In this document: in pieces, positions 20,408-41,385 of the stretch
Position numbering within the stretch: position 1 is the stretch's first letter
How the letters are laid out: every line of letters begins with the position of its first letter
Source: Candidatus Borrarchaeum weybense
GTDB lineage: Archaea > Asgardarchaeota > Sifarchaeia > Borrarchaeales > Borrarchaeaceae
Assembly: GCA_019057385.1 (NCBI GenBank)
Contig: JAHQJS010000004.1
Span: 384,001-448,000, forward strand
Direction: 5' to 3'
Length of the DNA: 64,000 nucleotides
Notes under the pieces: model-generated
What the model was told of the DNA's origin: nothing
The model's input: only the letters and a program-made list of their open reading frames with translations
The model's database searches: none
Program-made: the position numbers and the translations under genes

Positions 20408-21210
20408 GCGCTCACCTCAGTTAACGCTCCAACACGTATCCAATTCTCTTTAAAAGCATCACCAAGCGTTTTGTGGCTACGGGGAAGTCTAACTGTGAGA
20501 TCAATAATCTCATAGTCATGATATTGTTTTAAGAGCATGTCAACAGCCTTAATTTTTGAGAAATCAAAGTATGATGCAATATATCCTGCAGGTGGGTAAT
20601 ATATTGTCATCATAGGTAAACTATAATGCCCAGTGATAAGTTTGGGACGGATGTCCACTGTATAAGATTTTTCTGGGTTCTGGAAGTTGTTTATTACACA
20701 GAGGTAGGAGTATAGTGTAGTCTGTACTAAATCCTCGATCTGCCACATAGGTGGCTTAAGCAAATTGCTTTTTACTTCGAGAATCCTGTGGATACCCCCA
20801 AGTTGATAATAACAGTCTGCCTGTCCAGTAATAATAAGAAGATCAGGAATCCAATATTCTTCAGAGAGTTGAACTGACCATCTTTGAGGTGCTGGTGACG
20901 ATGAGGGTAGCAACTCAATATGCGCCCTAATATACTCAGGCAACTCTTTAGTTAGGAAATGTAGCATGTATTCTTGTGGAACGCCTGCACTTAACAAGAA
21001 ATCTACCAAAGCACTTCTCTGTAGATATTTGAAAACATCTTTTGGTTGAAGTTTTTGAGTTAAGATCTGAACGAAAATGTCTTCAACTAATCTTCCCCAC
21101 ATGCCTTGTACATGCCGAGGGTATGCCACACTCTCTTTTCGAGTATGAAAATGATAGGTGTTCTGAAGAAACGAACGTAAAGCGCTAACCGTGACGTTTT
21201 GAAGAATCAT
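20404..21210 (-). CDS. PD-(D/E)XK nuclease (Cas4/RecB-like motifs)
   Basis: ITGQAD...ILEVKS...QTTLY. Confidence 0.7.
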   Translation of the reverse strand: MILQNVTVSALRSFLQNTYHFHTRKESVAYPRHVQGMWGRLVEDIFVQILTQKLQPKDVFKYLQRSALVDFLLSAGVPQEYMLHFLTKELPEYIRAHIELLPSSSPAPQRWSVQLSEEYWIPDLLIITGQADCYYQLGGIHRILEVKSNLLKPPMWQIEDLVQTTLYSYLCVINNFQNPEKSYTVDIRPKLITGHYSLPMMTIYYPPAGYIASYFDFSKIKAVDMLLKQYHDYEIIDLTVRLPRSHKTLGDAFKENWIRVGALTEVSA

Positions 21211-22430
21211 ATCTCAGTTCTCCCATAGGCTCTTCTATAGAAGCGTTCAATTTCTCTATAAGACCCTAACGTTTGGTCAGTTAGAGGTTCACGATGATAA
21301 TGATATGCTAATTGTAAAATGTCAGCTTCGGTGCTGTATACGGTTTTTTGAGAAGATCCATTTAAAGCTTGGAATGTGTACTTAGACAGTTCCTCAATTA
21401 GGTGTTTAACCATGTTTTCTGTGCTGTCGTAAAGTTTATTCAGATGGTAAAGATTTTTCTTCTGAAAGGTCTTTGTATGGTTTTTGCGGGCCTTAACAAG
21501 CCTTTTTAGCAAATTTGAGGTGTTATAGACGCCTTCAAGACGGTTTTTCCATTCATTTAGAGCGTTCTTAAAGGCTTCATCCTTTGATTTAGCGATCAGT
21601 TCTGATACTTCGGGAGCAGGATTAATATCTTTTCGAGCTGCATATTGAATTTGATATCCTATAGCTGCTTCAACGGTTTTATAATCGAAACTGCTAAACT
21701 TCATTGTTAATTCTTCGATCAGAGCTTTTAAATCTCGAATCATGTGTAAATTTAGTAATTCCAGCCTTATAAATTCGTAGAATCGCTTCAGTTGTTGATC
21801 TGGGAGCGTAAGAATTTTCTCATACCCTTCCATGTAGAACTGAAGGTAGTTCTTTTTTGAATCTGAGTCCGTAAGGAACTCAATTAAACGATATGGCTCC
21901 TCTTCTAGGACAACTTGTCTACCACGGTCTGTTTTTTCTTTGAAAAACATCAAATTTAAAGTCATATTTTTTAACGCTTTGAAGGCACGATACCCACTTG
22001 GTCGAGGCAGTCCAACTACTGAAATCAAATATGCTGGAGAATATCGATATGTCATATATCTATGCTGACTATTCCTTACTGGTGGAATGAGTAAATCTTC
22101 TTTTGATACAAGGTTGTACGTTTCCTTATCTGCTTTGAGGATTGGTGATAGAACTCCGATTAATTTTAGATCCTGTAATATCCTTGGTTCTTGGTTAAAA
22201 TCAACTGGAAACTCGTCTCTATTCAAAGGTATGACATAATCACGTTGATTTTTAACGAGGAAACCTAGTAACTCAGGAAAATTAACGTTAATATTGAAAA
22301 ATACTTCTGCAGCAAGCATCATGCCTCCAAAAATAAGGCGTGTAGACTTTTGGGCCATAACGCCATTAATATAGTCTTGAACTGCGCGAATTCTCGTTTT
22401 TTCATCTTTTTTGGTAATTTTACTAGGCAT
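21207..22430 (-). CDS. Hypothetical protein
   Basis: 407-aa ORF overlapping its operon neighbours; no motif recognised. Confidence 0.6.
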   Translation of the reverse strand: MPSKITKKDEKTRIRAVQDYINGVMAQKSTRLIFGGMMLAAEVFFNINVNFPELLGFLVKNQRDYVIPLNRDEFPVDFNQEPRILQDLKLIGVLSPILKADKETYNLVSKEDLLIPPVRNSQHRYMTYRYSPAYLISVVGLPRPSGYRAFKALKNMTLNLMFFKEKTDRGRQVVLEEEPYRLIEFLTDSDSKKNYLQFYMEGYEKILTLPDQQLKRFYEFIRLELLNLHMIRDLKALIEELTMKFSSFDYKTVEAAIGYQIQYAARKDINPAPEVSELIAKSKDEAFKNALNEWKNRLEGVYNTSNLLKRLVKARKNHTKTFQKKNLYHLNKLYDSTENMVKHLIEELSKYTFQALNGSSQKTVYSTEADILQLAYHYHREPLTDQTLGSYREIERFYRRAYGRTEI

Positions 22431-23850
22431 TTACTTCCACATCCTCTTTATATTTTATGAAATGATTATAATAAGCCTCCTGAACGTTCTTATAAATCTT
22501 ACAGAGATGATATTCACTAGATATTCTGGGATAACGGTGATCGGCATGAAGGAAGTTGGTATAGAAAACTCCATTAACTTGCCATGCAAGAAAAGATCTT
22601 AATTTTTTATCACTGGTAAAGACTGAAGAGAACCGTTCTTTTGCCATTGAACTGAAAATACGTGAAATAAGAAGTCCTAAGCCCCAGATTAACTGTCGGA
22701 ATCTTATGGTACTCGTTGAAAAACGCGAAATCAGGCGCCGTGCATCTTTACTTGCTTGCTGTGCCCCTTGCTCTAGATGATCAGTTACAATAACTGCAGC
22801 GAAATAAATCGCTAAATAGGCACTCCAACTTGTCACAAATGCGCTTGAAAGCATTCCACGGACATATCCATGAATAAGAAGTGCTGTAGTTAGAGTTTTT
22901 ACGTCATATTGATCAATAAAGTCTTTTAAAACCTCTGGAAGGCGAATCCATAATGTTGAAGAAGCGCCAGAATCTGGCGGTTCATCTGTACTTGGCTTAT
23001 GGGTGCTTCTAATGGAAATAATGCCGAAATCCTGCAGCCTCGTCCTCAGAGTATCTTCCCGAGTTTCTTTTGTAAGTGCTTCCAGTAATGGAATTTCTTG
23101 AGCATCTACCCAGTCAAACCATTGATTCACATCTGCGATTGTACCTCGCTCTGGGTCTTCTTCATCCTCATCTATGTCATTTTGGCGTGCTCGATCATCT
23201 ATATGTTCGATAATGGCATTAAGATACTGTTTCCATCGATGAGGATCACCTCCAGGTGAACCCGGTTGGTCATGAGCCAAGGGTACACTAGTTGTCATAT
23301 CTAGACGCGGTCTTTCCTCTGAACGCATGATACGCGAGAAAGATTCCAGCAGATCTTGATTTTTGATGATATATTCAAAAATCTCTCTATCATCTTTTGT
23401 TGGTTGTTTGATCCAGTTTACGTTCTTACGGGCGTTTATTAAGGCATCAGGCTCGATAATTTCATCCTTTGGGTCCACGTGATCTCCAAGTTTCCGATTC
23501 CAGAAGAATTGATTTCGTAAAACGTTGAAATATTTGGTTACATGCTCTGTGATTTTTTGTTTTTGGCAGTATTCTGTAAATTCTTGGTATATCTTGCTAT
23601 ATGGCTGTGCAGTAGGTGCTTTTTTAAATATAGCTTGAAATTTCTGGGCAAAATTATCGTATGCTTCTGATCTTCGCAATAAAGTAGAAAAAAAAGGTTT
23701 TAGCGGGTCATGTCCTTCTGATCTCTGTTTTCCTAGAGTAAACAAGGTGTACTGATAATTGCCAATTACTTGGTATAGTAAATATGGGATACTATCTGGA
23801 ATGCTCTTTCTCAATCTTAGGCTAAAGATGTTTGGATACGGTCTCACCAA
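22423..23850 (-). CDS. Hypothetical protein
   Basis: 475-aa ORF heading the minus-strand operon; acidic internal region. Confidence 0.6.
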   Translation of the reverse strand: MVRPYPNIFSLRLRKSIPDSIPYLLYQVIGNYQYTLFTLGKQRSEGHDPLKPFFSTLLRRSEAYDNFAQKFQAIFKKAPTAQPYSKIYQEFTEYCQKQKITEHVTKYFNVLRNQFFWNRKLGDHVDPKDEIIEPDALINARKNVNWIKQPTKDDREIFEYIIKNQDLLESFSRIMRSEERPRLDMTTSVPLAHDQPGSPGGDPHRWKQYLNAIIEHIDDRARQNDIDEDEEDPERGTIADVNQWFDWVDAQEIPLLEALTKETREDTLRTRLQDFGIISIRSTHKPSTDEPPDSGASSTLWIRLPEVLKDFIDQYDVKTLTTALLIHGYVRGMLSSAFVTSWSAYLAIYFAAVIVTDHLEQGAQQASKDARRLISRFSTSTIRFRQLIWGLGLLISRIFSSMAKERFSSVFTSDKKLRSFLAWQVNGVFYTNFLHADHRYPRISSEYHLCKIYKNVQEAYYNHFIKYKEDVEVNA

Positions 23851-24046
23851 TCTCTATCACAACCTTAATCTTGTTTTTTCTTACTACAACGTGATGCTAT
23901 CCTAGATGGTTTCATGCTATTTCTCATATATTGTTTCTAGAATAAGAAAGTATTTATATCATAACTAGTCCATTACATATATCATGGATAGTTTCACCTA
24001 TATAAAGATATTGAAAGGAAATGCAGAAGCTTAAGAGGGATTCACA

Positions 24047-24976
24047 ATGGAATTTGAATACGGAGAGATTTATCCTTTTGACGAAGAAGGAGTTAACTAT
24101 TCTGGTACGAGTTGGTATGAACTGGTCGGGCTAGACACGGCAAAACAAAAACTTGAACAGTTTGTAAAGGCAATATTGCAGCAATCCTTTTTTGAAGATA
24201 CACGACTTCCCTTTAGACCCTCTATTCTTTTACAGGGTCCCCCTGGTACAGGAAAGACCGCTCTTACTCTTGCTTTTGGTCAAAAAGAAAAATTCCCCAT
24301 TATTATCTTGCTTACTACTAAAATTATCCGCGCAAAACTAGGTCAATCGGGGGAAAATCTAAGTAATGCCTTTGCGTACGTCAAAGATTATGCTATTCAG
24401 AGAAAAAAACCATTGATATTGTTCATCGATGAATTTGACTCTTTCGCTCGCCAACGGGATGACGTACAAGAAATAGGTGAGATTAAGCGGTTGGTTAATT
24501 CGTTATTAACTGAATTAGATGTTTTAATCGCCCAACATAAGAATATTATTCTCATTGCAGCTACTAATCATGCTAACACCATTGATAGGGCCGCATTCCG
24601 AAGATTTGCTATTCAAATTGATTTTACTATTCCAGCACCTGAGTTACGTCATCATATTTGGAGTGAGTTTCACCGTAGAATTCAGTTAAGAATTCCAGAG
24701 TGTAAGTGGGATCTTGACACATTAGTGGAACGAACTGAAGGATATACTGCAGCTGATATCGAGCGTATCGTTCTTAGCGCAGCTATCGAATACATACATC
24801 AGGATCTCGACACAATCAATACGGAATTGCTTCTCCAACAATTAAGGTATGTGACACCCACATCCAAGCACATGGGCAAGGAAGAATTGTCTGATCTTTT
24901 AGACCTAGATAGTATTGATCTCCGCAAGATTAAAGGAATTACCGATGGATTTAAGACTCAAGCAAGTCGTTTATAA
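24047..24976 (+). CDS. AAA+ ATPase (classic clade, single domain)
   Basis: GPPGTGKT, LFIDEFD, AATNH..IDRAAFRRF, GYTAADI. Confidence 0.92.
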   Translation: MEFEYGEIYPFDEEGVNYSGTSWYELVGLDTAKQKLEQFVKAILQQSFFEDTRLPFRPSILLQGPPGTGKTALTLAFGQKEKFPIIILLTTKIIRAKLGQSGENLSNAFAYVKDYAIQRKKPLILFIDEFDSFARQRDDVQEIGEIKRLVNSLLTELDVLIAQHKNIILIAATNHANTIDRAAFRRFAIQIDFTIPAPELRHHIWSEFHRRIQLRIPECKWDLDTLVERTEGYTAADIERIVLSAAIEYIHQDLDTINTELLLQQLRYVTPTSKHMGKEELSDLLDLDSIDLRKIKGITDGFKTQASRL

Positions 24977-27900
24977 CTCTCTTTTGTGGAAAGTAACGGA
25001 CGCCAAGAGTATGAGTTCAAAAGAAAGCTTAAAAACAGCGAACTTCCAAGACATGTATCTGGTTTTAAAAGCTGTCGAAGTAAACAATTTCGGAATACAT
25101 AAGCATTTAACAATGTCCTTTGAGAAACCTATCAACTTAATTGTTGGGGCAAACGCAGTTGGAAAAACTACACTCTTAGATGCTGTTAGCATTGCTTTAG
25201 GTGGAGAGAGTGATCGCTACGGGACTCTCAAAGATTTAGTAGGTTATGTTGGACCCGCGGGAGACAAAGCTTCAGTAACAGTGTACTTGAGAAATCCGTC
25301 TAATGAGAACAAAAATCACCCACTTGTTGACTATGGAATATATACGAACTACGTGAAAGAAGAATTAAAAATTGAGGTCACAATCACCCGAGATTCAGTT
25401 TACTGGCAAGTAAATGATCGACAAAAAAAGCATGGCCGACAAGAAATTCGGAAGATGCTTCAAAGTGCAACCATTCGGATAGATATGTCTGATGAGATTT
25501 TGTTTACACGTAAAGACACGATTGATAAGTTCATGAGCGGAAGTCCTGTCGAACAGTTCCAACAAATTCTCACTTCTCTTAAACTCGCGAACTTACAGGA
25601 AGATATCCAAAACACTCAAGGTGAAGTCAAGAATTTACAAAATAAACTCCCGGAATTAGATTATCGACGGAAAAGTCTTGAGAAGGATCTTGAAGTAGCT
25701 AAACAGTTGAAAGAACAATATGAGCGAAAGTTTGACTTATTAGACCAAAAAGCAAGATTAACAAACATCTTGAACTGGATAGAGTATAATGAATGGCAAA
25801 CACGACTAATAGAGTTAGATGAGCAGACAACTCTCTTAAAAAAAGATCTTGAGGAGTTACAACACGAATACCAAGAAATAGAAACTCAATCTAAGCAAAA
25901 CAAACGAAATGAGCAGTTATTACAAGACCAGCTAAACGAGATGCAAACAAGGCTGACAGATTTAACCCGCCAAAATGAGGAGAGACTCCGAAATATCGGC
26001 TTAATAAAAGAAGATATTGCTGGGAAGGAGGCGGAACACCGTATCAAAGATCAGTACCTTCAAGAAAATGTTCAAAGACAGGAAAATTTGCAAAAAATCT
26101 ACCAAGAAGAAATTATTAAAGGCTCTCTCTTGTCATTAGAAGATTGGAAGAATTCTAAACCATTAATTGAGGAAAAAAGACGTGCACTAAAAGACTTACA
26201 GCAAAAAGATATACAGGCACTACAGACATGCAATAGCCGGTTATCACATCTTGCCACACGGATCAAGCGGTATGATACGCAGGAAAATCAAATACTCAAT
26301 GAGTTAGCTAAACTGAATCAAACTGTAACAAGTGGAACAAAATTTAATGCTGGGGAACACCATGTATTAGCACTACGCCGAGCCTTGGATCAGCTTCTTT
26401 GGGGGAAAAAAGTTACAAAACCGCTATTTCAGGAGATTTTTATAAAACCTGATGGCGAACTCTGGGAAGGAGCCATAAATCATGCGCTTGGGGGATTGCG
26501 TTCATATGTTCTAGCTAAGGATGCGGCAACAATTAATCAATTGAGAGAGTACATGGAACAGAACAATTTCAGTGTTTGGGTCGCACGTTTACCCAAAATA
26601 GCAAATATTCCAACTAGATCACTACAATCTCTTCCTGAAAACTTAAAAGATCTTATAGTAGGCTGGATTGACGATTTTTTGGAGTTTGATGATCCATTTA
26701 TTGCTACCTATCTTTTAGCGAGAACTCGCGCACTTCTGGTAAAGAGTAATGCTTCCGCCACTGAACTCTTAGAACTGGCTAAAATAACGGGCGCAGACGT
26801 GTACACTGCGCAACCCTCGGTATTTAAACCTGATGGACGCTTCCGCACGAACGTCCGAACCTCCTACTCATTAGGAAAAAGAACTGATAATATCGAGAAA
26901 GTCATAGAACTTCAAACAAAATTAGAGCACATCAAAAATGAACGCGCAAAATTAATAGACCAGCGTTTAAAGATTCTTGAAAAAAAGGCAGAGCTTCAGG
27001 ATAAGCAAGCTCAATTGCAAGAACAAATCGATGCATTACAAGATCAAATCACTCACATGGCCAAGAAGGATCCTACATCGATACTGAAATCTATTGAAGA
27101 ACTAGACAAAACGATTAAGGAGCAACATAAAGAAATTGAGCGAATAGCAGAAGAGTTAGAAAGCACTAAGACTCGATTAAAGCCATTAACAGAGAATACC
27201 TTCATTGAGGAAATTAAATACCTTAATAATGAGATCCCTAAAATTCAAGAACAGATTGGGGGATATAGAACTCACGACCAAGTTCTTGAAAATCGTTTAA
27301 TTGAATTAAAGTCAAAAATTGAAACTATGAAAGCCGAATATCAAGATATTGAAAGAGATCTAGAGCTCCGCCGCAGTAAAGTTGCACAATATAAAGAAAG
27401 CTTGGTCGATCCTGCCCCAAAACGCCTTCCACCCAAAACAAAAGTTCTGAGAGAAATTTATGAAATTGATGGTGCTGTAAATCAAATCACAGCCACTGCT
27501 TATGATGTAGAGCAGTACGAGAAACTAGAGAAATATTATCAAGAAACAGGACAAGATATTGAGAGAGTTTCACAAGCACTAGATGAAACTAGACAGCAAC
27601 TTGAAGATTACTATCAAGAATGGAAACAACGAGTCAAGTTTGTTCTTCAACAGCTTCAGGATGTGGCGAACTTTTTACTATCTCCTTTCATTCAGGTTAG
27701 ATGCTCTACAACTAATTCCTTGGATATGAAACAGATTGGTCTAAAAGTAGAGTTTACTAACAAGACGAATGGAAACGAGAAATATGAACTTTATCATGTG
27801 GCTTCCGGTGGTGAGCGTGCTTTAATCACTCAATCATTGTTCTTAGCTTTACATACGCTGAATCGAAGTTCTCCTATCCACATTGTCGATGAATTTACTC

Positions 27901-28106
27901 AACGTTTGGACGAAAAATATCGCGGTCACGCCTTTATCATGGTTAAACGCCTTCTAGAAAAACTCAAGGAAATAAACGGACAGAATGGCGGTTATAACTG
28001 GAATCTGATTCCTCAGCTCATTTTAGTTGCACCAATAGTAGTAGGAAGCTATATCCCTCCAGAAATAGATACTCAATATTTATTCAAAGTAACTAAACTG
28101 AGTTAA
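24915..28106 (+). CDS. SMC-family ATPase, SMC5/6-like
   Basis: Walker A GANAVGKT, two coiled coils around a hinge-like region, signature ASGGER, Walker B IVDEFTQRLD. Confidence 0.85.
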   Translation: MISARLKELPMDLRLKQVVYNSLLWKVTDAKSMSSKESLKTANFQDMYLVLKAVEVNNFGIHKHLTMSFEKPINLIVGANAVGKTTLLDAVSIALGGESDRYGTLKDLVGYVGPAGDKASVTVYLRNPSNENKNHPLVDYGIYTNYVKEELKIEVTITRDSVYWQVNDRQKKHGRQEIRKMLQSATIRIDMSDEILFTRKDTIDKFMSGSPVEQFQQILTSLKLANLQEDIQNTQGEVKNLQNKLPELDYRRKSLEKDLEVAKQLKEQYERKFDLLDQKARLTNILNWIEYNEWQTRLIELDEQTTLLKKDLEELQHEYQEIETQSKQNKRNEQLLQDQLNEMQTRLTDLTRQNEERLRNIGLIKEDIAGKEAEHRIKDQYLQENVQRQENLQKIYQEEIIKGSLLSLEDWKNSKPLIEEKRRALKDLQQKDIQALQTCNSRLSHLATRIKRYDTQENQILNELAKLNQTVTSGTKFNAGEHHVLALRRALDQLLWGKKVTKPLFQEIFIKPDGELWEGAINHALGGLRSYVLAKDAATINQLREYMEQNNFSVWVARLPKIANIPTRSLQSLPENLKDLIVGWIDDFLEFDDPFIATYLLARTRALLVKSNASATELLELAKITGADVYTAQPSVFKPDGRFRTNVRTSYSLGKRTDNIEKVIELQTKLEHIKNERAKLIDQRLKILEKKAELQDKQAQLQEQIDALQDQITHMAKKDPTSILKSIEELDKTIKEQHKEIERIAEELESTKTRLKPLTENTFIEEIKYLNNEIPKIQEQIGGYRTHDQVLENRLIELKSKIETMKAEYQDIERDLELRRSKVAQYKESLVDPAPKRLPPKTKVLREIYEIDGAVNQITATAYDVEQYEKLEKYYQETGQDIERVSQALDETRQQLEDYYQEWKQRVKFVLQQLQDVANFLLSPFIQVRCSTTNSLDMKQIGLKVEFTNKTNGNEKYELYHVASGGERALITQSLFLALHTLNRSSPIHIVDEFTQRLDEKYRGHAFIMVKRLLEKLKEINGQNGGYNWNLIPQLILVAPIVVGSYIPPEIDTQYLFKVTKLS

Positions 28107-28280
28107 GATCCGTAAATCTACACTTGTAGGGCTTATACGTTATTATCAAATATTGTGAAGAATAAAAAAAATATTTATTGTACATTTACATAATATGATC
28201 AAAATATGAAGACTTGAAAAATTAATGTTTCATTTTCATAATTGTACATGTTCCAGTATGACGACTATAAAGGTGACTAA

Positions 28281-31133
28281 GTGATAGAACATAAACCTTC
28301 CTCGAAGGAAACGTATCTACTAGGCATTGACTTAGGCACTACTAACACCTATGCCTGTTTATCAAAAATTCGAGATGAAAGATTATTAGATATTATTCCT
28401 ATAGGTATAACGCAACTCCGACAAAGTTTTCAGACAACTACTGACGAGTGTTTACCTTCGGTAGTTTACTTTCTTAAACAAGAAGAATTTGGTGTAAATT
28501 GTCTTGTAGGTAAAGGCGCTAAGGAACTTATTACTTCAGAACCAGAACGGGTTATCTGTTCGTCTAAAACTCACATTGGAACCGATAAAGTCTACAAGAT
28601 CAACGGGATGTCTTATATACCCCGTGATATCGCAGCAATTATTTTTGATACAGTCAGGCAGAGTGTGCAAGTATCCTCTCCAGAATATCTCCAAGGCGAT
28701 ATAATTGTAGGTGTTCCATCTCGATTTAATGCAGAACAAAAGGCAGATACTCTTAAGGCTGCAGAAAGAATATTTACGAAAGCATCAACTATCTCTTTAG
28801 TGGAGGAACCAGAAGCTATTGCTTTGTGGTATCTCCATGAGGAGATTAATACTGACAGTAAAGATACCTTTCTTAAAAAATGGTGTTTTGGAAAAAGGCG
28901 ATTTTTAGTTATAGATATGGGTGGGGGAACGTTAGATGTAGCCATTATCGAGGCGACACTACGTGACGATGTCGAATTTGATAAAGAGAATCCAAAAACA
29001 TATCCAATAGTAAAACGAATAGCAATTGGTGAATTTACTCAATGTGCAGGAGATGAATTTGACAAATTAATAGCGGAGAAACTACGCGTAGAACTTTATC
29101 CTAATCTTTCAGACGAGGAATATGAACACTACAAGCCATGTTTTCTCGAACAAGCGGAACGGATTAAGTTGGCTATTAGTCTGAAGATGCGAATGCAGGA
29201 CGCTTCCACTACGGTCCGAATACTGTTCTATTTATTAAGCACACATGAACCAAAAGAAAGCATATGGGATGTTGATAAGTACTATAACGCAGTTAAATCA
29301 CTACTTCCTCCCTCTGGCTTTACGTTTTATCATGATTATATCGAGGAATACAATCGAAAACAATGGTTGAAAACTACTATCCTTCGTCCGATTATTGATG
29401 CATATATCCAAATAGATGAGAATGAACGTCTAATTGATGGCCGTTTGTTCGATGTATTCATTCTAGCGGGCGGAATGGCTGAATTTCCCTTAATTGAAGA
29501 CATCTTTCATGAAATTTTAGGTGTTGCACCTGTTCGTCTGCGGAAGGACCCCAAGAGAGCTGTTGCTCGAGGTTTAATTGTTGAACATTATTTTGAGAAA
29601 TTTGACAGTATTTCTAAAAAAACTATCGGACAGACTTATGGCGTTAAAGTTTTTGATCGGAGCAAGCAACAGCCTGTATGGAAAAAATTTATTCGAAGAG
29701 ATGAAGAACTCCCGATCATTAAGAAAAATGTGCTTTCTGGAACATTGAGTGCGAAACAATCTAAGATCCTTTTTTCACTAGGTAAAAAACCTATAGGGGA
29801 GGAGAATTATGCACCTATCCGAGACTACTCGGTTGCATTAGATCCACCCCCAACAGAGCAAATTGCCTTCTCTCTTAATGTTTTAGTGAATGAATCTGGT
29901 GCAATTGAAATAGATGGAAAACGAGGTGATAATTGTGGGTTTATTCGGATAGGGGCATTAACAGGCGATGAAAGAGAAGAAGATTATGAGCCATTAATAC
30001 CTGAAGCGACTGATCGGAAGTTCACTCGTGAAAAACTTAACGAGTTACTTCCTAAAAAGGAATCGATAATTCGACCAAGAGAAGATAAGAGCCCTAAGAC
30101 AGTTTTAATTGAATTTAGGAAAGTTCTTGATCAAGAAAAGAAAAACAGAAGGAAACTCAGTCAACATCGTGAAGAATTTGCAAATTTAAGGAAAATTAGA
30201 AAAGCGCTCCGATCTCTTCAACAGAGTTACAGAAATAGATTTGGAGATCTTAAGAAACTCAAACATAATATAGCCACAAAAAATGTCTGTTTTGATGAAC
30301 TTCGAGAATACGTCCTTCTATTTGGTGATATTGTTAAATCGCATGTTCAGCGTAATGAGCCATGGAAACTTGACCAATTAACTGCATCTATTATCGCTGA
30401 TTTGACGGAAGTGATTCTAGAATATGGTCTACGTGGTGAAGTGCTATTTTCTTTAATGAGGCTCATTAGATATGTTATTCTCAAAATTCCAACTTTCCAG
30501 CCACCTAGATTCCAAGATTTGATTGATTTCGCCTTAGAAGAAAGTGGTAAATGGACTGAAGAGGTTTACTACGCCTTAAGTTTGATGGCAAATCCTTCAT
30601 CTTATCTTATCGACAAAATTATTTTTGCCCTCACATCAAAATACGGATTTAGTGCACTTCATGCCCTAGGCTTGTTTGTTAGACGACAAAATGAAACACA
30701 AAGTTATGATTTTCCAACTATACAAACTATTTGGGTGACTCTTCTTCATTTATTCACAAAAATAATTGAAGATGCTCCCTATGAAATTGAATTACCTCCA
30801 CTCAGCTCTGATATTATAGCCAATAGCAGATTTCAATCAACTAAATTTGACAATTTAAGAAAGAACGAGACATTTCTAGAAAAACTCTTCTTTATATTGG
30901 CTTACTTCGTGAAAAGTGAAGTTGATCTGCCCGAAAAACAGCGATATCCTGAAATGCTCAGAATAATATTTAACAGCAATGAATTACCAGAGATGCTTCA
31001 CTATCAGATCCAATTATGCCTGTACTGGTACGAAGGACAAAAATTCTTAGAAGAAATCGATGCTCGGGATGAAGAATTAGAGACCCAGGAAATAAGTAAT
31101 AGGATTATTGAGTATTATCTCCAAATTAACTAG
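28281..31133 (+). CDS. Divergent Hsp70-like protein with helical C-terminal extension
   Basis: GIDLGTTN, VGVPSRF, EEPEA, IDMGGGTLD, LAGG motifs; C-terminal third unlike DnaK. Confidence 0.85.
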   Translation: MIEHKPSSKETYLLGIDLGTTNTYACLSKIRDERLLDIIPIGITQLRQSFQTTTDECLPSVVYFLKQEEFGVNCLVGKGAKELITSEPERVICSSKTHIGTDKVYKINGMSYIPRDIAAIIFDTVRQSVQVSSPEYLQGDIIVGVPSRFNAEQKADTLKAAERIFTKASTISLVEEPEAIALWYLHEEINTDSKDTFLKKWCFGKRRFLVIDMGGGTLDVAIIEATLRDDVEFDKENPKTYPIVKRIAIGEFTQCAGDEFDKLIAEKLRVELYPNLSDEEYEHYKPCFLEQAERIKLAISLKMRMQDASTTVRILFYLLSTHEPKESIWDVDKYYNAVKSLLPPSGFTFYHDYIEEYNRKQWLKTTILRPIIDAYIQIDENERLIDGRLFDVFILAGGMAEFPLIEDIFHEILGVAPVRLRKDPKRAVARGLIVEHYFEKFDSISKKTIGQTYGVKVFDRSKQQPVWKKFIRRDEELPIIKKNVLSGTLSAKQSKILFSLGKKPIGEENYAPIRDYSVALDPPPTEQIAFSLNVLVNESGAIEIDGKRGDNCGFIRIGALTGDEREEDYEPLIPEATDRKFTREKLNELLPKKESIIRPREDKSPKTVLIEFRKVLDQEKKNRRKLSQHREEFANLRKIRKALRSLQQSYRNRFGDLKKLKHNIATKNVCFDELREYVLLFGDIVKSHVQRNEPWKLDQLTASIIADLTEVILEYGLRGEVLFSLMRLIRYVILKIPTFQPPRFQDLIDFALEESGKWTEEVYYALSLMANPSSYLIDKIIFALTSKYGFSALHALGLFVRRQNETQSYDFPTIQTIWVTLLHLFTKIIEDAPYEIELPPLSSDIIANSRFQSTKFDNLRKNETFLEKLFFILAYFVKSEVDLPEKQRYPEMLRIIFNSNELPEMLHYQIQLCLYWYEGQKFLEEIDARDEELETQEISNRIIEYYLQIN

Positions 31134-31199
31134 ACTTGAGATATCATCACTAGAACAAGAAGATTTTAGGCAAAGTTATTAGTCTATAAAAATTAATGC

Positions 31200-31970
31200 T
31201 CAAATCTTAAGAAGATCCGAACGCACCGTAAAATATTTTTTGCGAGGATTATCCACATTAAGATGAACCAGTTTCTCAATCGCAAAGGTTTTCATATATT
31301 TATCAAAATACTCTTTTGGTAGAAGAAGAATTGGACAGTGCATCTCATAAGCCCCTTCTTTCTTTTTATCTATAACTTCTCCTTCCTCGATTTTGAGCTC
31401 AATTTGACGTGCCAGTGATTTTAAATACTTTAGAAGAGTTTCTCGTCTGCAATACTCGGGAAATCTCATTGGTCGTTCACTAATAACTTCAGGAAGATTG
31501 CTTGATAAAAATTGTGAAATTTCACGAATTTTTTTAACACAATTCTCTCCTAGAGGTGTAAGAGTATTGTTTTGGGAAGAAAAAAGTTGTTCCACACGTC
31601 CCTTTGGATCCTTTCCGATATATTTGTAAACTAAATTAGGTTTGACATTGCGTATTATACCCCAACAGAATAATTGCACTTTTCGCACTTTCAATAATTG
31701 AAAATCTTCCTTAGTCCAAGAATCAAAAACTTCTAAGGCGTCTAATCCAATTTTTCGTATTGTACATCTCTGAACGCCTGCTTCCTTCACAATCAAACCC
31801 ATGTCTTTGAGTAACTTAACCGCGCTATACGCAAATTTACCTTTTGGAAAATATACTGTTCTTTCAGCGTCACTTTCATTAATAGATTCAGCGTCTCTTA
31901 GATAACAGAGAACCTCAATAACATCTTTTCGATCAAAAATCCGGATCATTAAAACTTCGTCCATAGCCAT
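31200..31970 (-). CDS. Hypothetical protein, N-terminal winged-helix-like region
   Basis: VKLLKDMGLI...TIRKIG pattern. Confidence 0.45.
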   Translation of the reverse strand: MAMDEVLMIRIFDRKDVIEVLCYLRDAESINESDAERTVYFPKGKFAYSAVKLLKDMGLIVKEAGVQRCTIRKIGLDALEVFDSWTKEDFQLLKVRKVQLFCWGIIRNVKPNLVYKYIGKDPKGRVEQLFSSQNNTLTPLGENCVKKIREISQFLSSNLPEVISERPMRFPEYCRRETLLKYLKSLARQIELKIEEGEVIDKKKEGAYEMHCPILLLPKEYFDKYMKTFAIEKLVHLNVDNPRKKYFTVRSDLLKI

Positions 31971-32527
31971 TCCTCACTATCATTTTCAATTATTTCACTC
32001 CTTGCCATCCGCCCCATCTTTTGTGAGGATTTGCAAACTGTAATTTTCTTTTGCCCAGTTTATCTCATTCATCCAACTACATGAAGTTACAACTAAATAA
32101 ATATGCAAAGTAGATAAAAGGCATAACTATTAATCAGGTCTATGATTATTGTTTATCCTTCATATAGTGCATGAAATCTACTTTACTTGAGAGAGACTGC
32201 AATAAAACTGTGAAAGTGGTTTTTTGTAGTTTTTAACTACTATCTTGCTACGATTTTGCTTTTAGTGAGAGCTCGTATAGATTCAATTAATGAAAATAAC
32301 GATCTCAAATTTATGACAAACTCGATCGAACATGGTGAAGATTCTAGGAAAACGCTGAAAACATGCTAATGGTGATCTACTGAACGATCACAAGTGAGAT
32401 TTGCGCGGATAAACGAGTGGAATCGAAAAGTATACTACAAAGGTTAACCTTAAGGATCCAATTTGAGTATATATATACTTGAATTCACAAATGAAATTAC
32501 ATAAATATACTTGAAGAATGTGATAAA

Positions 32528-32842
32528 ATGGCTGTAAATGATGTAATAATGGATAAAATATTATGTATGGTGTACCATTGGCAAGATGCTTATCCCAGTA
32601 TATCTGAATTAAATAAGAGATTCGAAATAAAAAATATGGAAACAATTGAAGCAGATAGGGAGATATGGGAAAGAATATTAAAATTACAGGCTAAAAAATA
32701 TGTAGAAATCAAAAGACCTCTTATTTCCATAACAAATCATGGCATTAACTATCTAAATAAAAAATATCCAGAACTTGCTGAGCGAAGTATAAAAGAATGC
32801 CTTTTTGTAACTTGCAAAGATTGCGATATGTTAAGCTCTTAA
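32528..32842 (+). CDS. Small winged-helix protein
   Basis: ILKLQAKKYVEI....ISITNHGINYL pattern. Confidence 0.55.
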   Translation: MAVNDVIMDKILCMVYHWQDAYPSISELNKRFEIKNMETIEADREIWERILKLQAKKYVEIKRPLISITNHGINYLNKKYPELAERSIKECLFVTCKDCDMLSS

Positions 32843-33429: not shown

Positions 33430-35133
33430 ATGATCACAATGCCACATATATTGGGATGGTATTCGGTATGGGAACGGTTGGGACGAGCAGGTTATCTAAA
33501 GTTATTTGCTTTTCAGTATAAGGCGGTTTATGCATTCAGGGATGGAAAAGATATATTTGTAAAAGCACCAACGGGTGCAGGAAAGACGCTCATTCCGCTG
33601 ATTTGTGCTACTCTTATTCTTGGAATGAAAAAACGATGTGTGTTCCTTGTACCGACCAGGCGGTTGATCGACCAGACCTATGACCGACTCAAAGACTGGT
33701 TTGAAAGTATACCACATTGCGAAGAAGAGTACAATATCGTAACCTTAACAGGAGATAATCGACCTTCTTACAAAGAAATACGAGAAGTGCACATAATCAT
33801 AACAACCTACGAGTCTTTTAATGGTATGTTGGCAAAACATTACAGACATTCACTTTTGAACAATGTCGGACTTGTGGCGATTGATGAAATGCATTATGTC
33901 GGGGATGTAGAGAGAGGGACGCATCTTGAGGAGGCTATTGTCAAAGCGAAGTTGTGGTTGCGACCTCGTCCTCAGATGATCTACCTTGCGGCTACGTTAG
34001 GGAATATACAAGAAATTGGGGAGTGGTTAAAAGCTACAGTCATCGAAACAAAAAAACGCAAGTCGGAAATCATTGTTGGATCACCCATTAACGTCTATAA
34101 TGAGGATGAACGGTTAAAGGTTATTGCTCAGTTAGTTAAAGAAACGGATCAGATAGAGATAGGGGCAAAGGAAACTGACAAAAGATGTGTGCTGGTTTTT
34201 TGTAGATCGAGATGGCATGCCGAAACTAGAGCACAGAATCTTGCAAAAATGTTGGAGAAGGAAGGATACAAAAAAACTGTTTCATATAGCCACAGAGGAC
34301 TGAAAACTGTGGAACGACAAAAGCGGATGAAAGCGTTTCAAAAGGGTGAAATTGACGTGTTGTTCACCACAACAGAATACAAGGAGGGTGTGAATGCTCC
34401 AGTCCTGCGGGTCATCATAGCTGATACCGAGGTGTTCAATTCTCAGGACATTGAACAGATGATCGGAAGGGCAGCCCGTCCGCGATTTTTTCAGATCGGA
34501 TATGCAAATCTGATTATTCAGGGAAACATAGAAGACATTCTCGAAAATAAAAGAATAAGGATAGAGGAAGGGGTAGCCCATTTTGAGGAATCACCATTGG
34601 AAAGTTGGGCAAAATATCATTTGAACGAGATCATCCTCAACAGGTTAGCTAAGGGTGCCTGTTCGATAGGTCGGCTTATTAGGTATCTCAAAGAGTTTTA
34701 TTTTTACTTCGAGGATACAACTCAGATAAAGAATTGGTATAAAGTTATGGAAAACGCAATAAGTGAACGAGAGATGTTTATGCTTACCGCAGACAACTAT
34801 ATGATACTCTTCTCTTTAATAGATAATGACGATAGATACAATGCGAAGGATAAGAAGAACTTTCACTCTTTCGTAACTGAATTCCTGATGCGTAGTCGCA
34901 AGTGCGCTGAAACACAAAAAAGAAGGCGTAAAAGGGATAAAAAACTCGTACTTGAAAAGAAGATGGCTCTTGTTTTCTTGAAAGAATACTTAACTAATAA
35001 ACTAAAACGTTATGATGCTGAGCTAAAAACTCAAGTTAAAACTCATCTAGGCTACCTCATCCATATTGGGTTTCTTAAAAAACAGGAACTGGAATCTAAG
35101 GCAATAAAGGAAGGATTAGGAAGTGCAGTCTAA
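33430..35133 (+). CDS. Ski2/Hel308-like SF2 helicase (N-terminal part of a split helicase-Cas1 gene)
   Basis: APTGAGKT, DEMH, LAAT, HRGL, QMIGRAARP; ends midway through the winged-helix domain. Confidence 0.88.
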   Translation: MITMPHILGWYSVWERLGRAGYLKLFAFQYKAVYAFRDGKDIFVKAPTGAGKTLIPLICATLILGMKKRCVFLVPTRRLIDQTYDRLKDWFESIPHCEEEYNIVTLTGDNRPSYKEIREVHIIITTYESFNGMLAKHYRHSLLNNVGLVAIDEMHYVGDVERGTHLEEAIVKAKLWLRPRPQMIYLAATLGNIQEIGEWLKATVIETKKRKSEIIVGSPINVYNEDERLKVIAQLVKETDQIEIGAKETDKRCVLVFCRSRWHAETRAQNLAKMLEKEGYKKTVSYSHRGLKTVERQKRMKAFQKGEIDVLFTTTEYKEGVNAPVLRVIIADTEVFNSQDIEQMIGRAARPRFFQIGYANLIIQGNIEDILENKRIRIEEGVAHFEESPLESWAKYHLNEIILNRLAKGACSIGRLIRYLKEFYFYFEDTTQIKNWYKVMENAISEREMFMLTADNYMILFSLIDNDDRYNAKDKKNFHSFVTEFLMRSRKCAETQKRRRKRDKKLVLEKKMALVFLKEYLTNKLKRYDAELKTQVKTHLGYLIHIGFLKKQELESKAIKEGLGSAV

Positions 35134-37468
35134 GGTAATAAAGAACGGGAAATATAGCGTAACAGAAACTGGACAATGGGCAAGTCAATTTCTATTAAAG
35201 ACCAGCGATGCAAAGAAGATCCACAAATTTCTCCAGACACAGTATTTTTATTCAGAAGACGACGCTTGTAAAAAACTGGCGACTCTTATAAGTGAGAGTG
35301 TCCGTGAGAACGATAATTCGCGATATAGAGCGCAACAATATGAGTTGTTCATATTATCTTTAGTAGAAGGGTTCGATATTGATGAGGCAGCGGAAAACGC
35401 TCGGATGCGACAAGGGGATGCCGAAGGGTGCAGAAGAACTGCCGCGTGGATTGCAGAGGCAGTTAATGCCTACGTTGGAAAGAACATTCCGAAGATCGCG
35501 GAAATGGCAGAAGGAATTAGTGAAGCGCTTACCGTAGATAAAAGAAGGGAAATAGGACCTGGGGTGCGAAGTTATGCAAAAGAGAAACCCTCGTCATATC
35601 CAGGTATTCAAAAAACAATTTGTTCTGTTATTAATCAATTAGGAATTTGCACATATGATGCGATCCATAACATAATTACTGACAAATATGGTGAGTCAGT
35701 AGATCGAACGACAACAATTTGGAACATCCTTGATTTAAGGGCGAAAGACGAAGTTATAACTTTATCAAGAGGCAAGGGAATAGGGCGTCCCGTAATCCAT
35801 GTGTGTAAAAAGGGAATGAATGTACCTGAACATATGCGCAAGACTTGCGGATCCTGTGTATTTTACATATCCTGTGACGATGATGAAAAAGAACGAGACA
35901 ATCAAAGATTTATCTGTGAACTGCGAAGGGAATGCAACAAGCGCGTGGAAAAAAATATTGTAAGCACGTACGTTACGAGCAATATGGGTGCGTGTAAATA
36001 TCATAATTCGTCTCAAGAGCGAAAAAGACGAAGTTTTCGTAAATTTGAGAGGACAGACACAGGCAAACCTATCTGCCAAATTTGTAAATCGGATGCCGTT
36101 AAGGAACCAACCGCTTATGATCACTACACCATATGTTCCAATTGTAATTCACAGTATTACTACCTTTGCGACGGCAGGTTCAGTGTTCAGCCAGGTGTCA
36201 GAGATTTATTACAGCAAGCATTAGAAGAAATCTATGGAAAGTCCGTTAAACCTGTTAAAAGGTGTGCAAAACTAGAGGGTTCTTTAGATCGGCAATACGT
36301 TGAATTAACCATTAAGAAAGGGGATGCAGCTCATATTGACCAAAATAAACTCATTTATATTCCAAAAGAGGAGAAGACACGTTCTTATTTGTTAGATGCC
36401 ATTGAATGTGTTAGAGTGCTTGACGGTGCATATATCACGCCTTATGTATATGAGAAACTCGATGACAGAATTTTATCTGGCAAGAATGTGAATAGACCGC
36501 CAAACGCTTCCTTTGAAGGGTATATAAACATACCTGACGTGCACAATCAACTGAAAGAACGTATACAAGAAATTCGAGAGCAAGAAGTTGGTTTGGCATT
36601 GGCGAGGATACTTATAATGGGTAAGAAAATGAATAATGCAATTCTTACTCTGCAAGCTGGTGAGGAGGGATTACTGTGCCCAGTAGATGCCAGCAGGTTA
36701 TTTTTCAAACAAATGAATGTTGTCGCCCATACTATCATGTATTGGACGGGAAATAGAGAAAATCTGCTCAGTTTCGAGGCGGTTGGCGAACGATACGCAT
36801 GGAAAGCAATTAAACGCGCCTTGAAGGATACATCTATGCGCTTTGAAAATCGTACACAGGAACGATATATCTTTTCGGTTCCCTATATCGGCAAAGTTAG
36901 GGCACGATCTCCCTTTAGTGCAGGACTTAATGCCATTTATCGCCGTGTCCTCGAAATATGTAGAGAGGTGCTTTGCGAAAAAGGATTCTCTTGGTTTCCT
37001 GGCGAACTCGTACTCCATTATAGAAGAAGAAAAGACCAACAAATCCCCATTGGAACAGCTCTTGATTTCCGAGAGTTGTTTTTGGCACTGTTCAGATTCA
37101 CTTATATGAAAGCGTGCAAGAAGGATCAAATTAGGAATACAGATTTTGTACTGTCAAGTACATCTCGCGAGGAAAAAGTATATACCCTTACATACGAGGC
37201 AGAGGATAAAGTTAGAGACTTAATCGAAAGCGTCATGAATAAAGAGGTATATTATCTTGGAAAACAGATGTCACTTTGGAAAGCAATGAAAGAATGCGCA
37301 CGTTCACTTCGCAACTTTTTATTAGAGGGATCTAAATTTATTCCTTTTGTCTGCGCATTAAATGAGGAGCAATTTAAAAAGATTTTAAAGACTTTCCAAA
37401 ATATAGAGAGGTTTTGTGGACCTTCAGGTAAAGGACCTCCTGTTTCAATGTTTGATATCTTATCATAA
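35123..37468 (+). CDS. cas1: Hel308 C-terminal domains + HTH + Cys-rich Zn fingers + Cas1 integrase domain
   Basis: N-term YSVTETG..AS and GDAEG...AAWI (Hel308-like); several CxxC motifs. C-term Cas1 pattern LLSFEAVGERYAW...RSPFSAGLNAIY...VLHY...ALDFRELF, with the E/H/E catalytic positions present. Confidence 0.8.
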   Translation: MQSKVIKNGKYSVTETGQWASQFLLKTSDAKKIHKFLQTQYFYSEDDACKKLATLISESVRENDNSRYRAQQYELFILSLVEGFDIDEAAENARMRQGDAEGCRRTAAWIAEAVNAYVGKNIPKIAEMAEGISEALTVDKRREIGPGVRSYAKEKPSSYPGIQKTICSVINQLGICTYDAIHNIITDKYGESVDRTTTIWNILDLRAKDEVITLSRGKGIGRPVIHVCKKGMNVPEHMRKTCGSCVFYISCDDDEKERDNQRFICELRRECNKRVEKNIVSTYVTSNMGACKYHNSSQERKRRSFRKFERTDTGKPICQICKSDAVKEPTAYDHYTICSNCNSQYYYLCDGRFSVQPGVRDLLQQALEEIYGKSVKPVKRCAKLEGSLDRQYVELTIKKGDAAHIDQNKLIYIPKEEKTRSYLLDAIECVRVLDGAYITPYVYEKLDDRILSGKNVNRPPNASFEGYINIPDVHNQLKERIQEIREQEVGLALARILIMGKKMNNAILTLQAGEEGLLCPVDASRLFFKQMNVVAHTIMYWTGNRENLLSFEAVGERYAWKAIKRALKDTSMRFENRTQERYIFSVPYIGKVRARSPFSAGLNAIYRRVLEICREVLCEKGFSWFPGELVLHYRRRKDQQIPIGTALDFRELFLALFRFTYMKACKKDQIRNTDFVLSSTSREEKVYTLTYEAEDKVRDLIESVMNKEVYYLGKQMSLWKAMKECARSLRNFLLEGSKFIPFVCALNEEQFKKILKTFQNIERFCGPSGKGPPVSMFDILS

Positions 37469-37703: not shown

Positions 37704-37750
37704 ATCCGTTATACAAAAAGCGTTATTTAAAAACCGCAATGCTTATATAC
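37704..37750 (+). promoter_or_regulatory. Promoter region of the cas7-like gene; putative target of guide 1
   Basis: TTATATA at 37743-37749, ~34 bp before ATG 37783; 44/47 identical to 38771-38817. Confidence 0.7.
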
Positions 37751-37782
37751 TCGGTTGCAAAGGTATATTTGAGGTTTTCAAA

Positions 37783-38598
37783 ATGAAAAAAACTAAGAAA
37801 CAGATCAATGTTCATGCCTTCACTCCTATTGCGAAACCGATCAATACCTCCATACAGAAAAATTCCACTATGCTTCTTTTGGGAGAAATTCCGTATGTCA
37901 ATGGATCGAAAACATTTACTACCAAGCTGTATTATCTCAAAGGTTTGCGAGGAATGCTGAGGCATGCCTGCATGGACTTAGCACGTGCTTACGATATCGA
38001 GGTCTGTCACAGTTCTGAAAAGACTGAACTCAGGGATGGGACAAAACTCGTCTCGCAAGGGTTTCATCCGCTGGGTGCCTGTGATCCTCCCTGCATTCTG
38101 AGGCGTATCTTCGGTACGTTCAGAGAAGACTCCCGCATTAGTGTTTCCGCCGATCCCATCACTTCTATCAGCCATAAGGAATACATTACCGAAGTTCCCG
38201 TCCAAAAAGTTCATATCGCCAGTGAAAATAGGATTGCTCTTTCCTATGACAGGATCCCCATACAAGACTTTAGACAATCCTATTTTTCAGGTTACTTTAC
38301 CTTTTCCATTGATGCCACCCAATTGACCGATGATGAGATTAAATTTCTCTTGGAATCGCTGTTGCATATAGAGTACTATGGTGGTGGCAGAAGTGCGGGC
38401 TATGGTCATGTCAAAATTCTAAATGTTGAATTGCTGCACATAACAATCGAAAGAAAATTTGAATCTGAGAACGGAACTCTGAAAGTCGTTGAAGAGGAAA
38501 AAGTAACTCCGCTAGAACTTGATACTCTCGATGACTGGACGGAAAGTATATCCCTATCTGCACTGACACAAGAACTAGAATTGATGGATGGGGAGTGA
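37783..38598 (+). CDS. cas7: Cas7/Csm3-like RAMP protein
   Basis: KGLRGMLRH, C..C..RRIFG, ENRIA, C-terminal G-rich loop GGGRSAGYG.V. Confidence 0.85.
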   Translation: MKKTKKQINVHAFTPIAKPINTSIQKNSTMLLLGEIPYVNGSKTFTTKLYYLKGLRGMLRHACMDLARAYDIEVCHSSEKTELRDGTKLVSQGFHPLGACDPPCILRRIFGTFREDSRISVSADPITSISHKEYITEVPVQKVHIASENRIALSYDRIPIQDFRQSYFSGYFTFSIDATQLTDDEIKFLLESLLHIEYYGGGRSAGYGHVKILNVELLHITIERKFESENGTLKVVEEEKVTPLELDTLDDWTESISLSALTQELELMDGE

Positions 38599-38648
38599 AA
38601 AAGATGTTGAATAACCTGCAATACTCGTTATTTCCTTTTTTCTCATCT

Positions 38649-38851
38649 AAGACGGAATGCTTCCCTTGTAGCGAGGGGAGCACGTTCTTGTGCATGAGAC
38701 TGAACCATCTTGGAGGTCTGACGCCTCGTCTCATGGGGATGGATGACAGGCAGGGGACGAGAAAAGTCACATCCGATTTACAAAAAGCGTTATTTAAAAA
38801 CCGCAATGCTTCTATACAATTAATATGCCCGTTATAACATTGATAACGGGC
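38649..38851 (+). ncRNA. Putative guide RNA 1: scaffold 38649-38770, variable segment, 3' hairpin 38827-38851
   Basis: Scaffold homologous to 39758-39875 with compensatory stem changes. Variable part matches 37704-37750. Hairpin gcccgttat-N7-ataacgggc. Confidence 0.7.
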
Positions 38852-39720: not shown

Positions 39721-39730
39721 GTTTATATAG
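39721..39730 (+). promoter_or_regulatory. TATA box for guide RNA 2
   Basis: GTTTATATAG ~28 nt upstream of the conserved scaffold start. Confidence 0.55.
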
Positions 39731-39757
39731 GTCTTTGCAAGCGAATATACAAGTTAC

Positions 39758-39957
39758 AAGGCGGAATGTTCCTCGCATCACGCGGAGAACACGTTCTTGT
39801 GCATGAGACTGAACCTGAGAGGTCTGACGCCTCGTAGAAGGGAATGAATGACAGGTAGGGGACGAGAAAGGTCAAAAAACAAGTGGTGTATGCGATAAAG
39901 TGGACGTGTACCAAAAAGTAATATATAAACGATGGAGGGCTCATTTGAGCCCTTTTT
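39758..39957 (+). ncRNA. Putative guide RNA 2: scaffold 39758-39875, segment matching the integration site, terminator-like hairpin
   Basis: Second scaffold copy; 39881-39914 matches the reconstructed empty DUF362 site at 28/34. Confidence 0.72.
39936..39957 (+). terminator. Hairpin plus T-run
   Basis: agggctc-attt-gagccct followed by tttt. Confidence 0.6.
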
Positions 39958-40014
39958 ATCTATTTAAAAACTGAGTTTTCCCGCCGATTTGGTCAAAAAT
40001 ATAAAACTGATATT

Positions 40015-40311
40015 TATGATAAAGTGGATGTGTATGAAGGTGGAACTTGTCAATATTGCAAGGCAATCGTCAAAACCGCGCTACAATCTCTACACAAGAA
40101 AGGAGACATTTCGCTAGTCAAAGATATGCAAGTTATTGTTGGTAAAAACCCTTCCGAGCCATATTCGAAATCAAGTTTAGATTTTATTGTAGGCGATTGC
40201 GCATGTGAATCGACAGATTACGAGGGTATTGAAATTCCTGGTTGTCCACCCTTTGACGCTTTCGTAAAAATCAGAAAAGCAGTGCACAACAATGTTTCTG
40301 AGAAAACATAA
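40015..40311 (+). pseudogene. Displaced 3' end of the DUF362 gene (attR-like)
   Basis: YDKVDVYEGGTCQYCK...SEKT is homologous to the C-terminus of 10277-11596; no 5' part. Confidence 0.85.
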
Positions 40312-41172: not shown

Positions 41173-41385
41173 AATGATTATGTTCTTCAATATCACGACA
41201 GAAGTTCCTCAAGTATTTCAGGAAAATTCAGATTTTCTGCGCCATTATTCAGAGAACACTTTCTTGTGAATTAAACTGAACTTAAAAGGTCTAACGCCTT
41301 ATAGAGGTTCATAATAAAACGAAAAGTTAAATTCTATACCTTTAAAATAGCTTGTATACAAATAATGAAAAAAGAAGGAAGATGG

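Follow-up and report, generated by a model that had tools for sequence, protein, structure and literature searches.

The 64,000-nucleotide stretch analyzed here (the window; Candidatus Borrarchaeum weybense, an Asgard archaeon, GenBank assembly GCA_019057385.1, contig JAHQJS010000004.1, positions 384,001 to 448,000 of the forward strand) contains an open reading frame (ORF), 35123-37468, that encodes a Cas1-family protein with zinc clusters. Judged from sequence comparisons, this ORF supplies the Cas1 portion of a helicase-Cas1 enzyme of the Asgard RAMP (ARAMP) type that is divided between two genes here, and the protein and its gene set are of a known kind. The locus as a whole is best explained as an ARAMP-type RNA-guided mobile element, in which Cas1 would join the element end to host DNA and a RAMP complex would cut sites that are still empty, a reading to which we give an even chance. 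The features discussed below are collected in Table 1.

Searched as a single sequence, the 781-aa ORF matched TIGR00287 (cas1, E 7e-7) and the PADLOC Cas1 profile (E 2e-10). A profile built from 29 sequences aligned with both domains of A. fulgidus Cas1 (4n06, E 2e-21) and, more weakly, with the casposase 6opm (E 1e-16); 24 of its 29 members matched PF01867. All of the motifs that an earlier note on this DNA had quoted for the Cas1 N-terminal beta-domain and the catalytic positions are present (aa 392, 427, 435, 550, 630 and 648). In the alignment, E552 and H632 are invariant, D648 is nearly invariant and E651 is D or E in most rows, and these residues occupy the places of the catalytic E, H and D/E of Cas1. 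The fold, for which the note had proposed a structural model, was borne out by AlphaFold (aa 380-781, pLDDT 85), the top 50 Foldseek matches being without exception Cas1-family proteins; a single-sequence model of the whole ORF reached a pLDDT of 34. The CxxC clusters reported ahead of the Cas1 domain consist of three CxxC pairs and two single cysteines, all eight invariant (aa 242-341), and are predicted to bind metal as two zinc sites. Further upstream, aa ~158-230 resemble a winged helix-turn-helix (wHTH), with three helices and then a hairpin in a low-confidence model and conservation in 10 homologs. No profile matched this segment, and searches with a profile (PDB) and in the atlas returned nothing for aa 1-385.

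The earlier note had described this Cas1 as fused to helicase domains. This is only partly so, since a C-terminal piece of 134 residues is all that is helicase-derived on this chain, the motor being a separate upstream ORF in a different frame with an 11-nt overlap. The profile of this piece (aa 1-134) aligned to aa 576-706 of the host's 746-aa Hel308-like protein with a modest 19.6 bits and had no PDB or atlas match; going by the Hel308 domain layout, we take it to be the end of the winged helix and the ratchet domain. The Hel308/Ski2 superfamily 2 motifs and the C-terminal domains are not on one chain here, but they are in the fused paralogs: five paralogs in the genome and the database proteins P0003-P0005 are single chains of 1325-1360 aa. 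A split helicase-Cas1 was seen in this genome alone, where a tandem duplication shifts the frame. Assembly error as its source is disfavored, because a Logan contig of SRR14802572 carries both genes and is identical at every base across 14.3 kb, although this second assembly probably derives from the same sample. Programmed frameshifting is also unlikely, as an in-frame stop lies two codons ahead of the Cas1 start and there is no slippery run. It is doubtful, if compatible with the other readings, that the frameshift killed helicase-Cas1 and left the island described below as a stranded passenger or served in trans. The break does run through a helicase domain, the other copies are all fused, and one related genome holds an allele resembling an island-loss scar (see below). 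However, both ORFs are long and open with all motifs kept, their overlap is of the kind seen in coupled genes, no further lesion accompanies the divergence of the duplicated 34 bp (21/25), and ~830-aa Zn-Cas1 relatives occur naturally without a helicase motif.

The earlier view that the protein is neither an adaptation Cas1 nor a classical casposase is supported. No cas2, CRISPR array, PolB gene or terminal inverted repeat was found near the gene, as had been stated, and the canonical cas2, cas1 and 49-repeat array of the genome sit ~265 kb away. The note had also proposed a phylogeny with casposases and Asgard Cas1 homologs. The tree was run with the latter and grouped the RAMP-linked Cas1s in a single clade (100/99), surrounded by large Cas1 homologs fused to Zn or helicase domains; the split from 23 standard Asgard Cas1s, 22 of which adjoin cas2, was supported at 100/100, in a comparison set picked by similarity to the query, with long branches and with casposases left out. 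The protein shares both domains and the catalytic residues with CRISPR adaptation Cas1 (PF01867; 4n06), but lacks cas2, leader and array and falls outside the cas2-linked Asgard clade. With casposons (PMC9939771; 6opm) it has in common the Cas1 fold and triad and a Cas1 on a mobile element without cas2; it differs in the missing PolB, terminal inverted repeats and target-site duplication (TSD), in its N-terminal helicase, wHTH and Zn domains and in the linked RNA-guided effector. Among the relatives examined were two helicase-Cas1 fusions without RAMP genes (L079 6001-10712, 1140 aa; L080 287-6535, 2082 aa) and one helicase-less Zn-Cas1. No terminal inverted repeats were found around the two fusions, and the 1140-aa one has a convergent TnpB-like gene behind it.

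The Cas1 ORF is followed by genes for a Cas7/Csm3-like RAMP and a RAMP-HD protein, the latter without a match in Pfam, NCBIfam, PADLOC, PDB or the atlas. The earlier note on the Cas1 ORF mentioned neither these two neighbors nor the two RNA elements described below. Helicase-Cas1 is present six times in the genome and cas7 eleven times, alongside ~26 good copies of a non-coding element of ~120 nt; the helicase-Cas1 and RAMP genes are co-oriented and linked in six copies. The cas7 gene is 78% identical to one from Ca. Borrarchaeum yapensis, on a contig with flanks that show 90-93% identity to this genome. Such a gene set has already been catalogued as ARAMP/aCas1, at least in the summaries given by PMC8730458 and PMC10691335; ARAMP (2020) is summarized there as an array-less CRISPR derivative of Asgard archaea with aCas1, its mechanism being called enigmatic (PMC8730458). 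Gene content, set against this published summary, places the locus in ARAMP: the Asgard host, a diverged type III-like Cas7, a distinct Cas1 and no CRISPR array agree, and the RAMP-HD protein, to judge by its motifs, may stand for the Cas5-like RAMP and the nuclease. The locus differs in its scaffold RNAs, identified targets, empty sites and split helicase-Cas1; the published summary gives no RNA, target or mobility, though the original may say more. Scaffold RNAs, their targets and mobility of ARAMP were likewise not found in the literature searched, the primary ARAMP and HRAMP papers lying outside that search.

The cassette stands at the right end of an insertion of ~28.7 kb, and its relatives also occupy the right ends of insertions of variable length at many different host sites. 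In the window, the insertion breaks a DUF362 gene (10277-11596) and restores it, because the element carries its own replacement 3' end; a second 3' end lies at 40013-40311. The flanks are joined in an empty site in three genomes of the same genus (G002, G003 and G004). Compared with G004, the right DUF362 copy is the original (257/270 identical) and the left copy is foreign (215/270). ORF scans and end comparisons of the island found no terminal inverted repeat, TSD, PolB, recombinase, transposase or Tns gene, and Cas1 is the sole integrase-like gene found on it. There is no inverted match above 11 nt between the island ends, and the junctions lose or replace host DNA, with 300 bp replaced at the left junction of the window.

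Two copies of the non-coding element lie within the cassette (RNA 1 and RNA 2). Two-sided changes were found in 13 of 25 pairs of the scaffold, a count that 0 of 500 shuffles reached, and slid controls were down to 40-55% paired; no Rfam match was obtained. Because single-strand folding of RNA 2 was no better than that of shuffles (z 0.0; RNA 1, z -2.0), the proposed structure rests on covariation, mainly of helix 1. As a separate observation, nine bases at the start of the cas7 5' leader (37753-37761) are identical to one end of the canonical CRISPR repeat, likewise in three other copies, which may be chance.

The tails of the two RNAs match different targets. The tail of RNA 1 and the corresponding tails in other cassette copies match the cas7 promoter, of which RNA 1 is predicted to be an autorepressor. 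Compared with the empty DUF362 allele, the guide of RNA 2 (guide 2) agrees at 23 of its 26 non-flipped positions; elsewhere on both strands of the 4.2-Mb genome (8.4 million positions) the maximum was 20, at the right junction, and the left junction reached 18. In class 1 complexes, every sixth base of the guide is flipped out (PMC11127173). In the promoter guides, whose target is non-coding, mismatches fall on indices 12, 18, 24, 30 and 36 in 35 of 50 cases versus 13 of 290 elsewhere, and four separate lineages alone give p ~1e-7. In nine discrete site guides, every-sixth-index mismatches amount to 22/45 versus 24/225, with only 7 in the other codon-wobble phase (p 3e-8). This six-base register is the strongest sign that Cas7 may read the scaffold RNAs. 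Since targets occur in genes, on either strand, and in a promoter, DNA is the likely target; no consistent protospacer-adjacent motif was visible beside them, and spacers of the canonical array did not match the elements. We regard RNA-guided DNA binding by Cas7/RAMP-HD as very probable from guide matches and register, and the R-loop-forming complex that the earlier note had supposed at this locus is well supported. The original proposal for HRAMP/ARAMP, a stationary module for defence against viruses, here on a defence island moved by other means, seems highly unlikely. The cargo (TIR, Argonaute, SMC) is defence-like and the expectation exists in the literature, as far as the summary in PMC8730458 goes, yet all identified guide targets lie in the host chromosome or in the promoter of the cassette itself, viral contigs yielded no cas7 homolog, and the cassettes stand at island ends in many sites.

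The two target classes also differ at the putative tag. Indices 2-5 are paired in 39 of 40 cases in promoter guides, but in 6 of 36 in site guides (30 of 36 mismatched). If the eight bases ending at index 6 are taken as a 5' tag, these indices are tag positions -5 to -2. In type III systems, tag:anti-tag pairing blocks HD activation (PMC11127173), and such pairing would let one complex repress its own promoter yet cut empty sites. Cutting of empty alleles together with autorepression appears probable. The G004 DUF362 allele (L002) is a hybrid with a donor-type patch across the protospacer followed by the original 3' end, and its eight non-flipped mismatches to guide 2 are those of the filled left junction; it looks like the scar that would be expected after island loss. 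The junction in the window fits, among other possible histories, a protospacer cut repaired on the left from a donor allele.

Guides for host sites come in two kinds. Discrete copies of ~30-35 nt were found in the window, in loci H, I and F and in L052 and L023. At no fewer than eight other sites, the element ends 7-9 bases past the scaffold and the tail is plain host DNA, as empty alleles in relatives show; a guide of this kind cannot have chosen its site, because it exists only after insertion. Some candidate matches were rejected: a 16-nt match of the locus H tail 32 kb upstream, considered as a split target, is taken to be chance, since the G004 empty site shows an island of ~5 kb, and tail matches of L028, L029, L042, L043 and L044 to this genome are not independent evidence for guides, the tails being the flank itself. 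In G004, L023 (1299-3013; the same as L056) holds four scaffold-guide units. Three of their guides each match one host site on contig C5 of this genome, and two of these sites are on opposite strands with ~130 bp between them; the remaining guide matches its own cas7 promoter. Another G004 locus (L022, ~5126) has a guide target in its own flank with a 3-bp in-frame deletion relative to the G000 allele, possibly an escape change.

It is quite unlikely that Cas1 acts as a Cas2-free adaptation enzyme, writing ~35-bp guides behind the scaffold tag while the element spreads by cutting and host homologous recombination only. The discrete guides do begin directly after an 8-nt tag recalling a CRISPR repeat end, the four units of L023 carry different guides, TSD and terminal inverted repeats are missing, and left ends carry replacement fragments. 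However, the scaffold units within one locus are strongly diverged, not fresh repeat copies, and in most cases the site guide belongs to an uninterrupted host flank running for kilobases rather than to a short insert.

In having one guide for a chromosomal site and another for repression of a cas promoter, the locus recalls CRISPR-associated transposons (CASTs) and regulatory cr-like RNAs such as CreA, tracr-L and mini-arrays (bioRxiv 2023.03.03.530964). Here, however, TnsABC and TniQ had no match in the island ORF scans, the guides sit on 120-nt folded scaffolds instead of repeats, and the HD nuclease motif is kept. A CAST-like direct coupling, with the Cas7/RAMP-HD R-loop recruiting helicase-Cas1 for integration in or beside the protospacer, comes closest to the suggestion of the earlier note that the helicase could link R-loop and integrase. 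It would agree with the window junction inside the protospacer (index 14-20), the overlap of the replaced stretch with the protospacer in locus H and L052, the discrete guides matching empty sites elsewhere and the linkage of the genes. We nevertheless consider it unlikely: flank-derived guides could not direct the first insertion at their sites, the junction-to-protospacer distance varies, there is no TSD, the window junction resembles one-sided homologous replacement, the HD motif is intact, unlike in nuclease-dead CASTs, and in this copy the helicase that would provide the coupling is a polypeptide separate from Cas1. Direct RNA-guided integration by Cas1 is at best doubtful.

IS200/IS605 TnpB reads its guide from the host flank beside the element end. 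The flank-derived guides of the related loci, though not the window copy, resemble this arrangement. Asgard Cas1 variants (Cas1H-Asgard-1/2) have been proposed as probable transposases of aCas1-TnpB elements (PMC10691335), in which a Cas1 variant is likewise combined with an RNA-guided nuclease. The present system differs from both in its multi-subunit class 1 RAMP effector in place of a RuvC protein, in the lack of flanking repeats and in a second guide class that targets its own promoter; no RuvC TnpB and no Y1 or serine transposase was found in the cassette.

In the ARAMP-type mobile element that we propose, Cas7 filaments with the RAMP-HD subunit would bind the scaffold RNAs and pair with DNA. 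The RNA 1 complex would occupy the cas7 promoter but leave it uncut, since pairing there extends to the putative tag positions -5 to -2, whereas RNA 2 would steer nicking or cutting of element-free alleles by HD, leading to homing or retention as with TnpB for IS200/IS605. The filled site would be immune, since its protospacer is split and replaced. Helicase-Cas1 would create new sites: it would join the element's single fixed end, the 8-nt tag of the scaffold, to host DNA while the helicase strips away the donor strand. One-ended joining of this kind would leave the element with a precise and a variable end and without a TSD. In the window copy, the split halves would be translated separately and would either reassemble or depend on fused paralogs in trans. 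Whether it is Cas1 by which the tag end is joined at new sites we judge to be evenly balanced.

Several points weigh against this proposal. TSD and terminal inverted repeats, the normal product and need of Cas1 integrases (PMC9939771), are missing, and at flank-guide sites the right end is precise but the left end is variable, with 0-130 bp of host DNA lost or replaced. Helicase-Cas1 is absent from 5 of the 11 cassettes in the genome and from the closest cas7 relatives (L041-L043, 82-85% identical); Cas1-less cassettes would need to move in trans or by homing. The proposal leaves the origin of discrete guides such as that of RNA 2 unaccounted for. The Cas5-like and HD identity of the RAMP-HD protein is a prediction from motifs, and the guide-target pairs behind the register were picked as best matches, with related copies among them that are not independent.

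Table 1. Features in and around the island (window positions)
Feature	Position	Strand	Details
Left junction inside DUF362 gene, with element-borne replacement 3' end	11291-11596	+	210/270 identical to displaced original
Island cargo	11600-33400		TIR protein, RNase III-dsRBD, Argonaute, HD protein, AAA ATPase, SMC-like ATPase, Hsp70-like protein, small wH-like ORF, orphans
Hel308/Ski2-like helicase motor, 567 aa; N-terminal half of split gene	33430-35133	+	Walker A, DExH and motif VI intact
Tandem duplication, 34 bp, diverged	35085-35143	+	21/25 identical; shifts frame and splits helicase from Cas1
781-aa ORF	35123-37468	+	Hel308 C-terminal piece, predicted wHTH, two predicted Zn sites, Cas1 domain
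aa 1-134, putative winged-helix end and following helical (ratchet) domain	35123-35524	+	Hel308/Ski2-like; profile alignment
aa ~158-230, wHTH-like segment	35594-35812	+	inferred from pattern only
C242, C245, C265, C291, C318, C321, C338, C341	35846-36145	+	two predicted Zn sites; alignment
Cas1 domain	36290-37400	+	E552 at 36776, H632 at 37016, D648 at 37064, E651 at 37073
cas7 promoter region	37704-37750	+	target of RNA 1 tail
Cas7/Csm3-like RAMP	37783-38598	+	PF03787 E 4e-6; PADLOC Csm3 E 1e-10
RNA 1	38647-38817	+	~120-nt scaffold; tail 38770-38817 matching cas7 promoter
RAMP (Cas5-like)-HD protein, 271 aa	38876-39691	+	G-rich loop; HD, HH, D and C-terminal H invariant in 16 homologs
RNA 2	39722-39957	+	TATA-like box 39722-39729; scaffold 39757-39874; putative 8-nt tag to 39881
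RNA 2, 3' part		+	guide ~39882-39912 matching empty site; hairpin and T-run 39936-39957
Right junction and displaced original DUF362 3' end	40013-40311	+	257/270 identical to G004
Remnant of older element end	41184-41305	+	RAMP-HD gene fragment and decayed scaffold

Further features lie around the cassette. The remnant beyond the right junction has a counterpart in G004 (L021 13961-14128) with a better kept scaffold and a tail of host DNA, which in G002 lies ~60 bp after the DUF362 stop codon; the DUF362 locus was therefore struck twice by this element family. On the left, 12148-16421 encodes a TIR protein and an RNase III-dsRBD gene that overlaps a gene for a 776-aa PIWI Argonaute. The stretch 17038-31970, with an HD protein, four orphans, an AAA ATPase (IetA/TRIP13-like), an SMC-like ATPase (LmuB/Mad3-like) and a 950-aa Hsp70-like protein, is a probable defence cluster. 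A 70-bp non-coding stretch (32246-32315) is 90% identical to G000 C4:345907-345976, upstream of the helicase-Cas1 there, and a 104-aa ORF with weak winged-helix matches (32528-32842; PADLOC E 1e-3) precedes the helicase and shows no similarity to the ORF at the corresponding place in L081. Cas1-less cassettes share a small divergent ribbon-helix-helix-like ORF ahead of cas7 (G000 C6:562230-562537; L028, L029, L043, L044 and L055), and G000 C4:562618-562973 is a miniature element with only part of this ORF region and the scaffold.

The scaffold RNA, the two target classes and the empty sites make the ARAMP mechanism testable with three proteins and one RNA. The split copy offers a natural 781-aa Cas1 construct and marks where helicase and integrase can separate. 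With a class 1 effector guided by a transposon flank, RAMP proteins would join the pattern known from TnpB/IscB. Only tentatively do we consider that a class 1 effector of two proteins on a long-scaffold guide RNA may mark the chromosomal site at which helicase-Cas1, independently of Cas2 and Tn7 proteins, places kilobases of cargo. If Cas1 were steered by the effector in this way, this would be RNA-guided integration without Tn7 machinery; if true, it would provide a programmable Cas1 integrase and a living link of casposons, TnpB-type elements and class 1 CRISPR.

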